Source of the DNA: a virus
Lineage: Duplodnaviria > Caudoviricetes
Reading direction: 5' to 3' (one strand)
Length of the DNA: 64,000 nt
Virus record (IMG/VR): IMGVR_UViG_3300002220_003351
Coordinates: 8,923 to 72,922 of that record
Numbering within the stretch: position 1 is the stretch's first letter; each line of letters starts with the position of its first letter. Below are positions 15,182 through 21,699 of the stretch, piece by piece. Position numbers and translations under genes: made by a program. The notes under the pieces are model-generated. The model had not been told where the DNA came from, did not search any database, and was given only the letters and a program-made list of their open reading frames with translations.

Positions 15182-16368
15182 AGCACCTCCAAACGCGGGA
15201 TTGCCGTTACGAATTTCGCTTTCCATTTCCGAATGTAGGATAACTGTTCCATGATCTCCTCTTTGAGGTTCCAAGGGAGTATGAGGACATATTCCGGGAG
15301 AGTGCACTTTATGCGGCTTTCCCCGAGAACCGGGATATGGCTTCCCGGGAGATATTTCCCCTGCTTGTGGGGGGATTTGTCCACCACGGAATGGATAAGG
15401 TCCCTGTTGATCCGGCAGTAGTTAAGGAGGGTGTTCCCTTTGGCCGGGGCTCCATAGGCAACAATCTCTGCCCCGTTTGTAACCAGAAACCTCAGAAGAT
15501 CACGGCGGATGTTTTCGGCCCTGTGCTGTAAAAACTTAGCCCTGGCCAAAGTGTCCGATTCCTTCCTGAGGACCCTTTTTATGTTCTTTAAGGGTTTCCT
15601 CTCCCCCTCGTGGCAGGCGTAGATTCTAAGGCTTCCCCCGTGTTCCGGGATCTCGTCGACATCGAACACCGTCAGCCTATGTTTCTTGAAGATCTTCATG
15701 ATGATATCGAGGCTGAAGTAGTTGTAGTGCTCATGATAGATCGTGTCGAACTGGTTGTATCTCACGAGGTTCATCAGGTGCGGGAACTCGGCGGTGATAA
15801 TCCCTTCAGGGGCGAGGGCGATCTTCATCCCCTCCACGAAGTCGTTGATGTCCGGCTGATGGGCGATGGTATTGATAGAGCAGATGAGGTCGGCCACAGG
15901 GAATAAATTGCCCTCAATGCCAACAAAATCACAACCAAAGAACCGCTTTACCGTGTTTATCCCCTTTGATTCTGCGATGGAAGCGGGTCCTTCCGCAGGC
16001 TCAAAACCGAGCACCCCGCACCCCATCTGCTTGAACCATTGAAGCATATACCCGTCATTGCTTCCGATCTCCACGACACGCTTGATGTGCGGGAATCTCT
16101 CAAGGATCATCTCCGCAAACTCTTTCGCATGGGACACATTTGAAGGGGACTGAGAGGAGAAATAGGGGTAGTCCTCCCTGAAGATCTCGGAGGCCTTCTT
16201 CATCTCCGGAATCTGGACCAGCCCGCAGGCACAAACATAGACCTTCAGCGGGTAGTAGATTTCCGGCTCCTCCAGTTGCTCCTTCGTCAGGAATGAGTTG
16301 GCCGGGGGCTGGTGGCCAAGGTCTATGAAGACATCCCTTAATGTCTTGTGGCAGAACCTGCACTTCAT
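15178..16368 (-). CDS. NDP-hexose C-methyltransferase (TylCIII/EryBIII-like) with N-terminal Zn-binding domain
   Basis: CRFC...DLGHQPPANSFL...PLKVYVC; VVEIGSNDG; YHEHYNYFS; YGAPAKGNTLLN. Confidence 0.9.
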   Translation of the reverse strand: MKCRFCHKTLRDVFIDLGHQPPANSFLTKEQLEEPEIYYPLKVYVCACGLVQIPEMKKASEIFREDYPYFSSQSPSNVSHAKEFAEMILERFPHIKRVVEIGSNDGYMLQWFKQMGCGVLGFEPAEGPASIAESKGINTVKRFFGCDFVGIEGNLFPVADLICSINTIAHQPDINDFVEGMKIALAPEGIITAEFPHLMNLVRYNQFDTIYHEHYNYFSLDIIMKIFKKHRLTVFDVDEIPEHGGSLRIYACHEGERKPLKNIKRVLRKESDTLARAKFLQHRAENIRRDLLRFLVTNGAEIVAYGAPAKGNTLLNYCRINRDLIHSVVDKSPHKQGKYLPGSHIPVLGESRIKCTLPEYVLILPWNLKEEIMEQLSYIRKWKAKFVTAIPRLEVL

Positions 16369-17441
16369 ATTATCGCCTCCAATAGATCAAGTTTCCCTTG
16401 GTAATCGTCAATATCATCGTCCGTGGCAATGATTCCATGCTCGTAATAGGCCCGGTACCAATCTATCGTCGTTTCCACCGCTTCCTCCATGGTCCTGATG
16501 GGCCTCCACCCGAGGAGCTTTCTGGACTCCGTGGAGTCAATCTTCAGGAGATATTGCATATGCGGGTGGGTGGGGGTGTTGTCTACTTCCCATTGGATCT
16601 TGGGCCACACACTTCTGGCTGTCCGGAGGACCTCAAGGACGCTCATTTCCCCGTCCGGGCCGAAGTTCCATGCCCGGTTGACATCCTGTCCCATTAAGAT
16701 CTTCTCCCCCAGGATGAGATACCCGGACAGCGCCTCCATCACATGCTGGAAAGGCCTCGTGGCGTTTGGGGTGTGGACGATGACCGTCTCTCCTTTGGAC
16801 GTTGCCCTCACGATATCGGGGATGAGCCTCTTGTAACTCCAATCTCCCCCACCGATCACATTCCCGGCCCTTGCGGTAGCGATGTTCATCCCGAATGACT
16901 CCCTGTAACACCTTATCACCTGTTCCACGCAGACCTTTGAGGCCGAATACGGGTCCACCCCTCCGAGTTCGTCTACCTCCCGGTATCCCCATGACCATTC
17001 CTTGTTCTCATAGATCTTGTCGGTGCTGATCACGACGACCCCTTTGACGCTGGGCGTCTTCCGGCAGGCCTCAAGGATGTTCACCGCCCCCATGACATTG
17101 TTCTCGAAAGTCTCCCGGGGTTCCGTAAAGGTCCGGGCGACGATGGCACGAGCGGCGAGATGGATCACAAGGTCGGGCCTATCGAAGCCTAACACCTTAC
17201 CGAGCAATCCGAAGTTCAGAAGATCCTGCCCCGGCATTAAATGAAGATCGGGAAGGTCATTTGACTTATAATTTATCGGATTCCCGAGGAGCTCGTGGTG
17301 ATTGGGAACAGTATTTGGCATGTGTCCGTACCCAGTAACCTCTGCCCCCAGCCTCTTGAGCCAATGGCAAAGCCAGCTACCTTTATATCCCGCGTGGCCG
17401 GTAACCAAGACCTTCTTCCCTCTGTAGATTTCAAACATCAC
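16365..17441 (-). CDS. rfbG: CDP-glucose 4,6-dehydratase
   Basis: VLVTGHAGYKGSWL; STDKIYEN; DPYSASK; ARAGNVIGGGDW; TRPFQHV. Confidence 0.92.
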   Translation of the reverse strand: MMFEIYRGKKVLVTGHAGYKGSWLCHWLKRLGAEVTGYGHMPNTVPNHHELLGNPINYKSNDLPDLHLMPGQDLLNFGLLGKVLGFDRPDLVIHLAARAIVARTFTEPRETFENNVMGAVNILEACRKTPSVKGVVVISTDKIYENKEWSWGYREVDELGGVDPYSASKVCVEQVIRCYRESFGMNIATARAGNVIGGGDWSYKRLIPDIVRATSKGETVIVHTPNATRPFQHVMEALSGYLILGEKILMGQDVNRAWNFGPDGEMSVLEVLRTARSVWPKIQWEVDNTPTHPHMQYLLKIDSTESRKLLGWRPIRTMEEAVETTIDWYRAYYEHGIIATDDDIDDYQGKLDLLEAII

Positions 17442-17641
17442 ACTGCTCCTTTCATTACCCTTAGCCGTCGGCCGTCCACCGTTCCTTTCCAGTAATCCTC
17501 AACCTCAAATCCAAGGGCCTTTAGGATCTCGATCAGCTGCTCTACCGTGACAGTTTGCCCGGAAATAATGACTGCCCGCTGCTGATGCGCTTCCTTGCGG
17601 GGCTCCGGGTGCCCTGGTATGTCAAAATCCGGTGTCATCAT
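17438..17641 (-). CDS. Hypothetical small protein
   Basis: 67 aa; 4-bp overlaps with both neighbours. Confidence 0.55.
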   Translation of the reverse strand: MMTPDFDIPGHPEPRKEAHQQRAVIISGQTVTVEQLIEILKALGFEVEDYWKGTVDGRRLRVMKGAV

Positions 17642-18528
17642 CCCCCCCTTGCGTCAAGATAGATCTTGTCCATGCTCGATAGGAGCACCTGGCAGTTCTT
17701 GCAGCAGCCTATGTCGGTGATCCTCCCTTCCAGCATCATATTTCTGAACCTCTGGAACTTGAAGTTGTTGTAGATCTTCATGGGGTCGGTCTTGAAGACG
17801 TTCCCCCGGACCCTCATGTCCCCGCAGCAGAGGATCACATCCCCGTTGATGAAGAGGAGCATCCGGTTCAAAAGGTCCGGGCAGATCTGTTTTGTCTCCC
17901 CGAAGGCGGCGATCCTATTGAGCCTCTCCTGGCGCTTCTCCTCGACCTCGGTTCCCCAGACATCGTAACAGGCCACCTGGTCCCCGAACTTTTTTGAGAG
18001 CACTCCCCTCCAGATCTCGCTGTATTCAGGCCACTCCTCCCTGTTGATATCCTGGCGGATCATCCTCATGATGATCTTGGTATTTCCGCAAGAGTTCCTC
18101 AGGTTGATAAACCTGACGATATTCTCCATGACCTTGCCGTAATCCACCTTCCTGATCTTTTCGTGAGACTCTTTGAACCCGTCCACCGAAAAAATGATCG
18201 TGTCGAGTCCGGCCGCCATAAGATGGTGAGCCATGCGTGCGTCCACATGAGTGGCGTTTGTGGCGAACCCCACCCCCTTGAACCCCCGGGCCTTTGCCTC
18301 CCGTACCTTGGTGATGATCGTGGGGTCCAAAAGTGTCTCCCCCAGCCCCTGGAGGTTGAGGTACTTGAGCCTGTCCACATAGGGCTCGAAAGCCTCCAGG
18401 ATCCTTATGAAGTCCTTCACGCTCATCACCCCCTTCCGGGGGGACTCCTTGATGTTGCACATGACGCAGTTGGCGCTGCACTTCCCGGCGAGGGTCTCGA
18501 TCTGTAGATACTCTGGGAAATAAATCAT
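17638..18528 (-). CDS. Radical SAM protein with SPASM/twitch domain
   Basis: CSANCVMC; GLGETLLDP; C-terminal CPDL...GDVILCC...CKNC. Confidence 0.9.
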   Translation of the reverse strand: MIYFPEYLQIETLAGKCSANCVMCNIKESPRKGVMSVKDFIRILEAFEPYVDRLKYLNLQGLGETLLDPTIITKVREAKARGFKGVGFATNATHVDARMAHHLMAAGLDTIIFSVDGFKESHEKIRKVDYGKVMENIVRFINLRNSCGNTKIIMRMIRQDINREEWPEYSEIWRGVLSKKFGDQVACYDVWGTEVEEKRQERLNRIAAFGETKQICPDLLNRMLLFINGDVILCCGDMRVRGNVFKTDPMKIYNNFKFQRFRNMMLEGRITDIGCCKNCQVLLSSMDKIYLDARGG

Positions 18529-20207
18529 AGTGGTAACACCTCCTGAGCCAACAATGGCTGCACCGCATCAATCCTGCGCTCAGACATGGAACAGTAATCC
18601 GGGTTCAGCTCAATCCCGATGTATTTCCTTCCCAACTTCTCCGCTACCACGCCCGTGGTCCCCGCCCCGGAGAATGGGTCAAGGATGGTATCCCCCGGCT
18701 TGCTCCCCGCCTTTATGCAGATTTCCGGTATCTCCGGTGGGAAAGTGGCAAAGTGATCGCAAGTAATGACTTGACAGGTGCATTTCGCTGTGGTAGAGAT
18801 GTCACATGGCAAATCCGAATCAACGATTAGGGAAGGTTGTTTCTTGTCAGGTATGTGGCAAGGAATTTTACCGGAAACTTTATCACATGAAGCTATCTGA
18901 GAAGTGCTTCTGTGGTTTTGCTTGCTATGCAAAATGGCAATCTCTGAACTGTCGGGGTTCAAACAATCCAAACTATCAGCCGGACGCATGGCGGGAATAC
19001 GACTGTTTTTGGTGTCAAAAGAAGTTTCGCCGACGGTTTCTTGACCATCAAAGGAATGTGTCTCGAACAGGCCGGGCGTTCTGCTCCCGTCTATGCTGGC
19101 AGGAATACGCCCATTATGCCCTTCAAAAGATTTCATATCATTGGAGTTCAAAGGCATGGAATCGCTCTCGTTTGAAGGTTCTGAAACGAGACAATTATCT
19201 TTGTCAGGATTGCGGATCAAATCAGGACTTGATTGCCCATCATCTAATCCCATTCGCAACTTTGCTCGGTTCTCCAGATGCCCATGAACTGGACAATCTT
19301 TTGACAGTTTGTAGGGCTTGCCATCGCCGCCGACATAATCAGACATCATCTTAGCCCCATTGAAGGGCTTTGTGGTTATCGTCCAGACGGAACGGCGGTT
19401 ACGGGTGTTGAGTGGTTCGGCCTGCATGCTCTGGCCGCCTGGAATTGATGATCGGTGGCGGCTTTCAATGTCTGATCGTAACTCTTTCCGGTCCGGCCCG
19501 ACGTTCGGATGGTTCAGGAGATTCTTCCCGTCGTCAAACTTCGATCCTTTCCGCGAATCAGCCCGCCGCGTGAACCCCTGCCCATAAGGTGACGCGATAC
19601 TCTCTGGGCTGTTGGGGATCCCATAAGCGGCCGGTTCCTTCACCGCCTCCGCATCGTAGTAATACCTTGCCGATTTCGTCAGCAGGAAAATGTATTCATG
19701 CGCCTTCGTGCATCTGTCCGTCACGCTCTCCGGCATGGGGTTCGGCTTCGCCCAAATGATGTCCTGCCTTAACCACCAACCGTCCGCTTGAAGGGCGAAG
19801 GCGACACGCCACGGGATGCCTACGAGGTCTTTGGGCTTGAGGTCACCGCAGTCTTTTTGTGAACCGTTGTTGCCGATGTCACGCTTTGCCTTGGCTGTTC
19901 CAGCCCATAGTCCAGACTTCTGTGGTGAATGCCGCTTGTATGGCTTGCCTCTGGCTGAACCAACTCCCAACGAGTACGAGTCCCCCAAATTCAGCCACAG
20001 CACCCCGTCATCCCGCAGCACCCGGCGAACCTCTCGGAACACCGCAACCAGATTCGCAACGTATTCCTCCGGCGTCTTCTCCAAACCCAACTGACCAGCA
20101 ACACCGTAATCCCGCAACCCCCAATACGGAGGCGAAGTCACGCAGCATTGAATCGTGTTCGCCCCCATACTTTTTAGCACCTCCTGACAATCCCCTGTAA
20201 TTATCAC
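18525..20207 (-). CDS. DNA N4-cytosine/N6-adenine methyltransferase (beta class) carrying a 199-codon in-frame insert
   Basis: VTSPPY (motif IV); IIWAKPNPMPES; KPFNGA[insert]HFATFPP; DPFSGAGTT (motif I); probable GTG start at 20207 overlapping the rfbF stop. Confidence 0.9.
   Translation of the reverse strand: MIITGDCQEVLKSMGANTIQCCVTSPPYWGLRDYGVAGQLGLEKTPEEYVANLVAVFREVRRVLRDDGVLWLNLGDSYSLGVGSARGKPYKRHSPQKSGLWAGTAKAKRDIGNNGSQKDCGDLKPKDLVGIPWRVAFALQADGWWLRQDIIWAKPNPMPESVTDRCTKAHEYIFLLTKSARYYYDAEAVKEPAAYGIPNSPESIASPYGQGFTRRADSRKGSKFDDGKNLLNHPNVGPDRKELRSDIESRHRSSIPGGQSMQAEPLNTRNRRSVWTITTKPFNGAKMMSDYVGGDGKPYKLSKDCPVHGHLENRAKLRMGLDDGQSSPDLIRNPDKDNCLVSEPSNESDSMPLNSNDMKSFEGHNGRIPASIDGSRTPGLFETHSFDGQETVGETSFDTKNSRIPAMRPADSLDCLNPDSSEIAILHSKQNHRSTSQIASCDKVSGKIPCHIPDKKQPSLIVDSDLPCDISTTAKCTCQVITCDHFATFPPEIPEICIKAGSKPGDTILDPFSGAGTTGVVAEKLGRKYIGIELNPDYCSMSERRIDAVQPLLAQEVLPL
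18771..18799 (+). promoter_or_regulatory. Putative sigma70-type promoter for the antisense HNH, probably giving a leaderless mRNA
   Basis: TTGACA 18771-18776, 17-bp spacer, TG-N-TAGAGA; ATG at 18806 lies 7 nt after the -10 with no Shine-Dalgarno. Confidence 0.5.
18806..19354 (+). CDS. HNH endonuclease with N-terminal CxxC zinc-finger repeats
   Basis: CQVCGKEF...CGFAC; VLKRDNYLCQDCG...AHHLIPF...DNLLTVCRACHRRRH. Confidence 0.9.
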   Translation: MANPNQRLGKVVSCQVCGKEFYRKLYHMKLSEKCFCGFACYAKWQSLNCRGSNNPNYQPDAWREYDCFWCQKKFRRRFLDHQRNVSRTGRAFCSRLCWQEYAHYALQKISYHWSSKAWNRSRLKVLKRDNYLCQDCGSNQDLIAHHLIPFATLLGSPDAHELDNLLTVCRACHRRRHNQTSS

Positions 20208-20977
20208 CACACCTTCCATGGGGCTTTTCCCTCCTTCCATAACGACTGCAATCCGTCCAGGTCCTTTAATGTGTCGAGGCATCCCCAAAAGCCCTTGTGC
20301 TCATAGACCATCAATTCCCCCTTGTTGGCGAGAAGCTCCATGGGGCCGACCTCAAGGTCGCACCACTCATCCTCGCAGAGGTAATCGAAGATCCCTTGGG
20401 TGAACACAAAGAACCCCCCGTTTATCAGATCCCCTCCGAGGGGCTTCTCGGAGAACGAGATCACCTTCCCCCCGTCCCGGTGGATCTCCCCGAACCTCGG
20501 GGCCGGATGGATCCCGGTGACCGTGGCGATCTTCTTGTGGGACAGGTGGAACTCAAGCAACTCCTTCAGGTTGATGTCGGAGATCCCGTCCCCGTAGGTG
20601 CAGAAGAAGTTATCGCCTGTGACGTGCTTCTGGACCCTCTTGAGCCTCCCCCCTTTGAGGGTGGCCTCCCCGGTGTCTATCATCGAGACCCTCCAGGGGT
20701 CTATGTTCGAGTCCAGATACTCCGTTATGGGGACGCTTCCAATATAGAACCTGATGACATCCCGGTTGATGTAATCGAAGTTGTTGAAGTAGCTCTTAAT
20801 GATCTCCTGCTTGTACCCGAGGGCCAGGACAAAGCTGTTGAACCCATAATGGGAGTAGATCTTCATGATGTGGTAGAGCATGGGCTTCCCCCCGATGGGG
20901 ATCATCGGTTTGGGGATAAATTCGCTCATTTCTCTCAATCGAGTTCCGCTTCCACCGCATAGTATGACTGTTTTCAT
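20204..20977 (-). CDS. rfbF: Glucose-1-phosphate cytidylyltransferase
   Basis: VILCGGSGTRLRE...PKPMIPIGGKP; LGYKQE; TYGDG; INGGFFV; GFWGCLDT. Confidence 0.92.
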   Translation of the reverse strand: MKTVILCGGSGTRLREMSEFIPKPMIPIGGKPMLYHIMKIYSHYGFNSFVLALGYKQEIIKSYFNNFDYINRDVIRFYIGSVPITEYLDSNIDPWRVSMIDTGEATLKGGRLKRVQKHVTGDNFFCTYGDGISDINLKELLEFHLSHKKIATVTGIHPAPRFGEIHRDGGKVISFSEKPLGGDLINGGFFVFTQGIFDYLCEDEWCDLEVGPMELLANKGELMVYEHKGFWGCLDTLKDLDGLQSLWKEGKAPWKVW

Positions 20978-21699
20978 TCAGTCCTCCTAATAAGCCACCC
21001 TCCCTCAGCAGAGGTCAAAAGGGCCTGGGCCTCGATCTCCTGGTCGGCCTCGAACCCCGGGTTACCACTTAGAAACTCCCTCACCGCCGTCATGGGGTTG
21101 TTCCCCGGCCCCCACGGCTTGTCCCCGCAGTCCACATTCATGGTCTCGATGGTGGTGTCGAACACCACGATATAGGACCCCGCCGGGACGAGCCTCGAAT
21201 AAAGGTTCAGCTCATTCAGCACATGCTCGTGCGTGTGGGAGGAGTCCAGAACCACGATCACCTTGTCTCCCCCCACAAGCGCCCTCACCTTTCCGTAAGT
21301 CTCCGGGGAGGTGCTGTCCCCCTCTATGAGATGGATCCTGTTCCAGAGGGGGCTTTCCATGAGGGCCTTGCGGTTGTGGTCCCTGATCTCGATGTCCACC
21401 CCTATAACCTGTCCCCACTCGATGCTCTCCATGACGGAGGCGTAGAACAGGAGGGATCCCCCGAATGCCACCCCGGTCTCGATGACGAAGTCCGGCTCGA
21501 TCCTGCAAATGAGTTCCTGCATGGCGAACATGTCTGTGGGGAGCTGGAGGATGGGCTGGCCCATCCAGGTCCAGTTCTTGACATACTCGGTTTCGATTAT
21601 AGCCTCGTAGAGCTTCTTTTTCCGATACTGGATGAACGTCGGAGAATCACCACTCAGCCTCTTTGTTCTTTCCTGGAGATACTCTTCTATCGGATTCAT
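20974..21699 (-). CDS. CmcI/cephalosporin-hydroxylase-family (rhamnosyl O-) methyltransferase
   Basis: WMGQPILQLPTD...IETGVAFGGSL; LDSSHTHEHV; YIVVFDT. Confidence 0.88.
   Translation of the reverse strand: MNPIEEYLQERTKRLSGDSPTFIQYRKKKLYEAIIETEYVKNWTWMGQPILQLPTDMFAMQELICRIEPDFVIETGVAFGGSLLFYASVMESIEWGQVIGVDIEIRDHNRKALMESPLWNRIHLIEGDSTSPETYGKVRALVGGDKVIVVLDSSHTHEHVLNELNLYSRLVPAGSYIVVFDTTIETMNVDCGDKPWGPGNNPMTAVREFLSGNPGFEADQEIEAQALLTSAEGGWLIRRTE

Follow-up and report, generated by a model that had tools for sequence, protein, structure and literature searches.

Introduction

Homing endonucleases are thought to persist in essential or useful genes by residing within introns or inteins, or to occupy the space between genes. 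Free-standing homing endonucleases also split host genes into functional parts, giving rise to "genes in pieces", as exemplified by the splitting of the Aeromonas phage Aeh1 gene nrdA by mobE. A further arrangement is represented by the ShiLan domain, which was first described as an unexplained mobile insert of 202 amino acids, in frame, in mycobacteriophage methylases (Gosselin et al. 2023, PMC9957025) and was later shown to hide an HNH endonuclease in the third (+3) frame of the same strand (Arsenault, Gosselin & Gogarten 2025, PMC11855218). The 2025 work thereby added a fourth option, a same-strand overlapping frame, to those available to homing endonucleases. Here, we describe a locus in a 64,000-nucleotide (nt) stretch of DNA, hereafter the window, which is part of a 72.9-kb uncultured viral contig. 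In this locus a DNA methylase gene contains an in-frame insert of about 200 codons whose opposite strand encodes an HNH endonuclease.

The window locus resembles ShiLan in several respects. Both comprise an in-frame, stop-free insert of about 200 codons (202 in each case) in a phage DNA methylase; no domain is recognizable in the read-through peptide, which is predicted to form a loop; an HNH endonuclease with zinc fingers is encoded in another frame; and neither has an intein or intron signature. Both inserts are patchily distributed and far exceed the host gene in conservation, and for each it has been proposed that the HNH is initiated leaderless. The two differ in that the ShiLan HNH lies on the same strand as the methylase, in the +3 frame, whereas the window HNH lies on the opposite strand and needs a promoter of its own. 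The HNH lineages also appear to differ, in that a tblastn search of 50,697 phage records returned no mycobacteriophage at E<=1e-5, which is an indirect comparison. In addition, the ends of the insert carry conserved Cys/His residues in the window family, for which stop avoidance was also measured in an unbiased test; the ShiLan papers (PMC9957025, PMC11855218) describe no Cys/His set in the read-through frame. The paper that uncovered the ShiLan endonuclease (PMC11855218) never uses the words antisense, reverse, opposite or complement and presents no opposite-strand arrangement, and our literature searches found no description of an opposite-strand HNH gene read through by a methylase. A sequence-only reading of the window had claimed a third way for homing endonucleases to occupy a gene; this claim of priority does not hold, because an endonuclease hidden in a stop-free methylase insert had already been published (ShiLan, PMC11855218). 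The window locus is an antisense variant of the ShiLan-type hidden HNH, its nearest published counterpart.

Comparison with the older systems is also instructive. As in genes in pieces, the window endonuclease has settled at a conserved position in a phage gene with neither an intron nor an intein around it, and sister HNH lineages (loci L083, L087 and L112) do so at the very same methylase site; in contrast to genes in pieces, the window methylase is unsplit and, as argued below, is probably translated across the endonuclease gene on its other strand. Selfish endonucleases at highly conserved sites of host genes, with a homing-type distribution, are likewise carried by inteins and group I introns, but the insert described here has neither splicing domains nor a ribozyme, and its endonuclease is on the other strand. 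In those systems the cost to the host is avoided by removal of the insert, whereas in the window it would be avoided by dual coding.

Results

An antisense HNH gene lies within an uninterrupted methylase reading frame

The methylase is encoded on the minus strand by a beta-class N4/N6 DNA methyltransferase open reading frame (ORF) at 18525-20288, which specifies 587 amino acids from a TTG at 20288. The likely start is the ATG at 20219, and the resulting gene (18525-20219) encodes a 564-amino acid protein identical to database protein P0001. The product matches PF01555 (Pfam, E=1.5e-48) in two separated stretches. Alignments and comparison with an empty site delimit an N-terminal part (19362-20219, minus), running from motif IV TSPPY through RNRRSVWTITTKPFNG. 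The C-terminal part (18528-18755, minus) contains the HFATFP motif X region and the motif I sequence DPFSGAGTTG, aligned to HPTQKP and motif I of CcrM (6PBD). With TSPPYW on the N-terminal side, DPFSGAGTTG on the C-terminal side and a beta-class fold, the protein has the features of this methylase family, and it retains all 54 columns that are invariant across 90 homologues.

Between KPFNG and HFATFP lies the insert (18756-19361, minus), 202 codons without a single stop in the methylase frame. Its GC content is about 45%, compared with 55-58% in the flanks. In a relative in which the site is empty (locus L120, protein P0005) the methylase reads TKPFKE/AHFATFP, and the insertion is therefore approximately 603 nt, an exact multiple of three; the flanks of this relative, 74% identical to those of the window, are the best match among the relatives compared. 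A Pfam search of the read-through peptide in the methylase frame found no family.

The opposite strand of the insert encodes an HNH endonuclease of 182 amino acids (18806-19354, plus) with N-terminal zinc-finger repeats. It matches PF01844 (Pfam, E=1.4e-8), and the profile of its family matches the phage HNH structure 5H0M (E=4e-9). In the family alignment, C133, C136, H145, H146, C169, C172, H173 and H177 are invariant, and the protein has the beta-beta-alpha-metal HNH motif (His-His, Asn and His) along with CxxC pairs. Codon position 1 of the HNH gene lies opposite position 1 of the methylase gene, position 2 opposite 3, and position 3 opposite 2.

Most of this anatomy had been anticipated by the sequence-only reading: a complete HNH gene at 18806-19354 is indeed present, its stop codon (19352-19354) does fall close to a junction, ending 7 nt inside the 5' junction, and the frame relation is, as claimed, not the wobble-aligned one. 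The low-complexity composition that it described is also seen, the middle of the insert being rich in Ser (13%) with Thr, Ala, Asp, Gly and Pro at 7-8% each. The KPFNGA-HFATFP motif is split as it stated, by 202 codons rather than the 199 that it gave.

The methylase frame is kept free of stop codons

Over the length of the HNH ORF, the methylase frame has no stops, whereas the remaining two frames of that strand contain 9 and 19. When the HNH gene was shuffled among synonymous codons, with its protein sequence and codon usage preserved, a mean of 4.68 stops appeared in the methylase frame and the probability of finding none was 0.0008. The figure of about nine expected stops in the sequence-only reading was thus crude, although the excess openness to which it pointed is real.

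The frame relation defines how stops arise. Because position 1 lies opposite position 1, a stop is created in the methylase frame wherever an HNH codon ending in TT, CT or TC precedes a codon starting with A, and consequently Phe followed by Ile, Met, Thr, Asn or Lys is intolerable in the HNH protein. The window HNH contains eight Phe residues, none in a forbidden context. Across read-through loci, 0 of 578 Phe residues precede one of these five amino acids, compared with 9 of 61 in eight stop-bearing relatives. The constraint on the methylase frame therefore extends to the protein sequence of the HNH, in its choice of dipeptides.

Among the best 120 homologues of the methylase, most are 323-400 amino acids long and lack the insert, and 11 of 500-725 amino acids have an insert at the same site. 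The DNA of 10 of the long homologues was recovered, and in every case the site is occupied by an antisense HNH that shares the frame relation of the window pair and leaves the methylase frame open. This set is biased toward open frames, because only open frames yield long proteins. An unbiased survey was therefore made by searching metagenome contigs with an alignment of HNH proteins (35-45% identical to that of the window, apart from the copy in locus L024 at 97%), a search that is blind to the methylase frame. It yielded 80 loci, 75 of which have methylase sequence on the opposite strand. In 72 of the 80, the position-1-opposite-1 frame has no stops, as against 0-24 for each of the two remaining antisense frames, and this open frame is continuous with both the N- and C-terminal parts of the methylase. 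Grouped by HNH identity, the 72 loci fall into 61 clusters at 90% and 35 at 60%. When their HNH genes were shuffled among synonymous codons, a mean of 3.6 stops resulted, with a median probability of 0.007 per locus of finding none. Homologous cassettes are thus usually free of stops and contiguous with both methylase halves, as the sequence-only reading needed them to be.

The eight exceptions, in which 1-9 stops occur, are relatives that split the methylase or stand free. In L083, L087 and L112 a longer HNH with 3-9 stops occupies the same site, and the methylase is split into two separate ORFs. Free-standing copies of the HNH (L055/56 and L106/107) have 7-8 stops, and a copy in a different context (L052) has one. 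Two unrelated HNH genes recovered from genomes have 4 and 6 stops in the corresponding frame. The split-gene and free-standing relatives act as natural controls for stop avoidance, and we conclude that selection keeps the methylase frame stop-free across the HNH gene.

The HNH genes of L083, L087 and L112, encoding 266-309 amino acids, lie between the two methylase ORFs; the N-terminal half has gained a C-terminal tail (roughly ...LRDDL..E....LL..G.. and then the stop), and ahead of AHFA the C-terminal half has acquired a leader (roughly ..EIP.DL..FF..V...). Reassembly of the two methylase halves may be enabled by these additional peptides.

Substitutions among close copies reveal how selection is divided between the strands. 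In the window, L024, L025 and L026, 30-32 of the 35-37 differences are synonymous in the HNH, at HNH third positions, and 34-35 of the same 35-37 differences replace an amino acid in the methylase-frame product. These proportions indicate ordinary purifying selection on the HNH and drift of the read-through peptide.

Four Cys/His residues at the ends of the read-through loop are conserved

In an alignment of 39 inserted methylases, mean column conservation is 0.29 in the middle of the insert and 0.59-0.65 in the methylase core, where every residue that is invariant in insert-free homologues is kept. Within the insert, nine methylase-frame columns reach a conservation of 70% or more. Conservation of A428 was traced to invariant residues of the HNH encoded opposite it, and the neighbors of a Cys-Pro-x-His motif face a conserved C-terminal motif of the HNH. 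The columns that are left after this tracing are C309, H312, C480 and C482 (numbered in the 564-amino acid protein), which are 97-100% conserved. C309 and H312 belong to a Cys-Pro-Val-His sequence (19284-19295, minus), antisense to His-Glu-Leu-Asp-Asn of the HNH. C480 and C482 belong to a Cys-Thr-Cys sequence (18774-18782, minus), which lies upstream of the start codon of the HNH and overlaps the -35 element of the putative HNH promoter.

The codons that specify these residues are themselves under selection. The Cys and His of Cys-Pro-x-His, which are invariant in the 39 inserted methylases, can exist only with particular synonymous codons in the HNH gene, and these are used almost without exception: the HNH His is CAT in 58 of 59 cases (background in the same genes, 55%), Asp is GAC in 48 of 48 (background, 45%), and Gly is GGC in 9 of 9 (background, 27%). 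In split or free-standing relatives these HNH codons vary, the His is even replaced by Asn, and there is no Cys/His on the other strand. Cys-x-Cys is present in 33 of 33 distinct inserts, and its two Cys residues are 97% and 100% conserved in the alignment. TGT and TGC are used about equally for them (18:15 and 20:13), and sublineages place the motif in three different registers with respect to the promoter hexamers; both observations point to selection on the amino acids and not on the DNA.

Two AlphaFold2 runs, one based on 90 mixed homologues and the other on 39 inserted homologues, gave results that agree. The methylase core is predicted with a local distance difference test score (pLDDT) above 90 and matches solved beta-class methylases (M.BceJIV, MboIIA, CcrM and PvuII) with template modeling scores of 0.75-0.80 on the target. 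Approximately the first 33 residues of the insert (pLDDT 72-90) and the last 15 (pLDDT 61-74) are predicted to be ordered, and residues 320-474 are predicted to be disordered (pLDDT about 30-35); this middle portion of about 155 amino acids is encoded by 18798-19262 (minus). Together with their conservation, the placement of Cys-Pro-x-His and Cys-x-Cys suggests a putative Cys3His zinc clasp closing the base of a disordered loop. Because its Cys/His ends are conserved, the loop looks co-adapted rather than merely tolerated.

A putative promoter for the HNH gene lies at the insert junction

The genes neighboring the HNH all run in the opposite direction, and the HNH therefore needs its own promoter. 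A putative promoter (18771-18799, plus) consists of TTGACA (18771-18776), a 17-nt spacer and TGG+TAGAGA (18791-18799), with the ATG 6 nt further on. Sequences that match the consensus at 9 or more of 12 positions occur at the same junction, on the HNH strand, in 18 of 33 lineages, against 6 of 231 interior control windows, and several lineages have TTGACA-17-TATAAT followed by AGGAGG and ATG. The layout in which the -10 is followed by 6 nt and the ATG is common to the window lineage, L031 and L074/75; it supports a leaderless transcript, and the HNH mRNA of the window lineage is probably leaderless. At the other end of the HNH gene, a terminator-like hairpin and T-run extend from the HNH stop (19353-19369, plus) within the conserved methylase codons for ITTKPFNGA; the number of such hairpins is not above the shuffled expectation, that is, it corresponds to chance frequency.

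The insert has moved recently between methylase genes

Over 606 nt, the inserts of L024 and L025 do not differ (100% identity), and the methylase DNA flanking them is 59-80% identical. The window insert is 93% identical in nucleotide sequence to these two inserts and about 93-95% identical to those of L024, L025 and L026 taken together, whose flanks are 57-85% identical. The insert has thus been transferred recently. High identity extends into conserved methylase codons, about 45 nt upstream and about 60 nt downstream of the insert, which fits co-conversion; these flanking codons are also conserved for their own sake. A crude comparison of 25 loci revealed a weak correlation between HNH and methylase-core identity (r=0.31), and in several pairs of loci the HNH is much more similar than the host methylase. 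The weak correlation and the similarity of the inserts form the pattern expected of homing. Overall, the insert is patchy in distribution and far more conserved than the gene that contains it.

A search of IMG/VR contigs with the HNH found only distant free-standing HNHs that match the motif alone. The 50,697 records of isolated phages yielded no close relative of the HNH, no methylase with at least 80% coverage and no instance of the layout, and reference genomes yielded only three read-through loci, prophage-like or from metagenome assemblies, with two in a Solirubrobacterales metagenome-assembled genome and one in a Patescibacteria metagenome-assembled genome. The two Solirubrobacterales loci (L115 and L116, on two contigs of CAWKGJ01) have identical HNH sequences, coordinates and ORF lengths over the HNH and methylase ORFs, which points to a repeated prophage or element.

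Additional inserts were observed in some of these methylases. A second antisense HNH is present in the methylase P0004 (gene L026:712-2889), in a variable loop after GDSYA (L026:1052-1561, on the minus strand of the locus). It encodes 169 amino acids (Pfam HNH, E=3e-4), is also arranged with position 1 opposite 1, and leaves the methylase frame with no stops (shuffle probability of none, 0.0014). The methylase P0003 (L025:1313-3361) has an added in-frame insert on the sense strand, of about 170 amino acids after ...ALQA, with a LAGLIDADG-like motif, YLAATIDAEGT; Pfam at E<0.01 found nothing in this insert, and its identity is unconfirmed. In L036, L037, L042, L045, L038 and others, extra gaps of 0.3-1 kb separate the N-terminal tblastn segments, and some of the gapped N-terminal parts are still in frame, with ORFs of up to 958-1127 amino acids. 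Such gaps in the N-terminal part of the methylase suggest further nested inserts at other sites.

Other genes of the window

Two further, free-standing HNH genes are found in this phage (35992-36462 and 54404-55126, both plus). One is a NinG/HNH-like gene of 156 amino acids; the other, of 240 amino acids with multiple zinc fingers, has the architecture of the nested HNH and is 34% identical to it over the HNH part. The methylase is flanked on the minus strand (16365-18528 and 20204-21699) by what appear, by eye, to be sugar-nucleotide and radical-SAM-type genes, the neighboring ORFs being dehydratase-like, radical-SAM-like, nucleotidyltransferase-like and methyltransferase-like. These genes could constitute a module for modification of DNA or of surface glycans.

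Discussion

We regard it as likely that the insert is a mobile, dual-coding antisense HNH cassette and that the methylase is translated straight through it, with no splicing of RNA or protein. In the mechanism that we propose, an HNH homing-endonuclease cassette of about 603 bp would sit antisense between the target-recognition region and motif X of the methylase (KPFNG/HFATFP). One strand would encode an HNH under ordinary purifying selection, and the other would stay stop-free, the methylase carrying some 200 extra residues. About 155 of these would be a drifting, disordered loop rich in Ser, Thr, Asp, Pro and Gly, and the structured ends of the loop, with Cys-Pro-x-His and Cys-x-Cys, would form a zinc clasp so that the methylase core folds and may remain active. 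The HNH would be transcribed from its own junction promoter, against the direction of the methylase, and would cut insert-free methylase alleles in co-infecting phages; the cassette would then be copied in by recombinational repair, together with a few tens of bases of flank. A stronger form of this proposal holds that the cassette is a co-adapted two-strand coding unit, in which a zinc clasp ties the loop of about 155 residues and the promoter lies inside the same methylase codons. To this form we assign about even chances.

Several considerations weigh against these interpretations. The case for read-through is built from sequence analysis and AlphaFold2 models, and the models bear on the clasp through the ordering of the loop ends and not through proximity of the Cys and His residues. 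The 59-72 loci from which codons were counted are phylogenetically related, and the counts are not independent events. The promoter proposed in the sequence-only reading, TTGACA-17-TGnTAGAGA, has its elements in place, with a perfect -35, but a consensus promoter scan did not call it, and its -10 is weak, with three matches of six and no T at position 6. Cleavage specificity and homing, finally, are suggested by the distribution of the insert.

The alternative that survives best, which we nevertheless consider improbable, is that the element has ceased to be purely selfish, or to be selfish at all, the phage having recruited its loop or its HNH, for instance as a flexible arm that binds DNA or a partner or as a nuclease acting in concert with the methylase. 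The methylase frame does have selected residues of its own, the layout is old, having been kept while the HNH proteins diverged to 30-45% identity, and the phage possesses two free-standing HNH genes as well. Recruitment is hard to reconcile with a loop whose sequence drifts freely apart from four Cys/His residues, with the patchy presence of inserts that are far more similar than their hosts, and with the fact that most homologous methylases work without the insert.

Antisense endonuclease genes occur in the group I introns of eukaryotic rDNA, and removal of the insert from the mRNA as an unrecognized intron, self-splicing or host-dependent, would find a precedent there and agree with the intron-like distribution of the cassette. 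We nonetheless judge such an intron very unlikely. A cmscan search of both strands of 18300-19800 returned no Rfam match at E<=1, and the HNH ORF fills 549 of the 606 nt of the insert, leaving, as the sequence-only reading had noted, no room for a ribozyme core. Nor would a spliced insert need to be free of stops in 72 of 80 loci, to be a multiple of three in length or to conserve its Cys/His codons.

Excision after translation, whether by an atypical intein or by proteolysis, is an equally slim prospect. It too would require an open frame, and Cys residues are found near the C-terminal junction. The insert begins, however, with Ala after KPFNG and not with Cys, Ser or Thr, and it ends in ...ITCD/HFATFP, with no His-Asn preceding a Cys, Ser or Thr; the absence of intein-type ends had been recognized from the sequence. 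Furthermore, Pfam identified no intein or Hint domain, and AlphaFold2 predicts disorder in the middle of the insert and not a Hint fold.

Finally, the notion that the open frame is a by-product of HNH composition or of sampling and that the methylase is a dead gene is the least credible of all, for although the initial 10 homologues, having been picked up as long proteins, were biased to open frames, chance openness is rejected by the shuffles of the window HNH and by the frame-blind survey, family members outside a read-through methylase do have 1-9 stops, and inserted methylases keep every invariant catalytic residue.

The window locus and at least 70 relatives indicate that the overlapping-frame trick of ShiLan works on the opposite strand too. 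The antisense orientation requires an internal promoter, and it imposes a harder coding constraint, which is satisfied through the choice of codon pairs and dipeptides. With its built-in controls, this family is one of the statistically cleanest long antisense overlapping gene pairs in a prokaryotic virus. The antisense HNH was left uncalled by gene callers in all contigs examined; because they annotate the long methylase ORF alone, the nested nuclease is missed. The zinc-clasped loop offers a structural idea for how an insertion of 200 residues could be made harmless. If the cassette is indeed a co-adapted unit, it would constitute a natural, ancient and widespread antisense gene pair of about 600 nt with measurable selection on both strands, and it would provide selfish endonucleases with a protein-level alternative to splicing.

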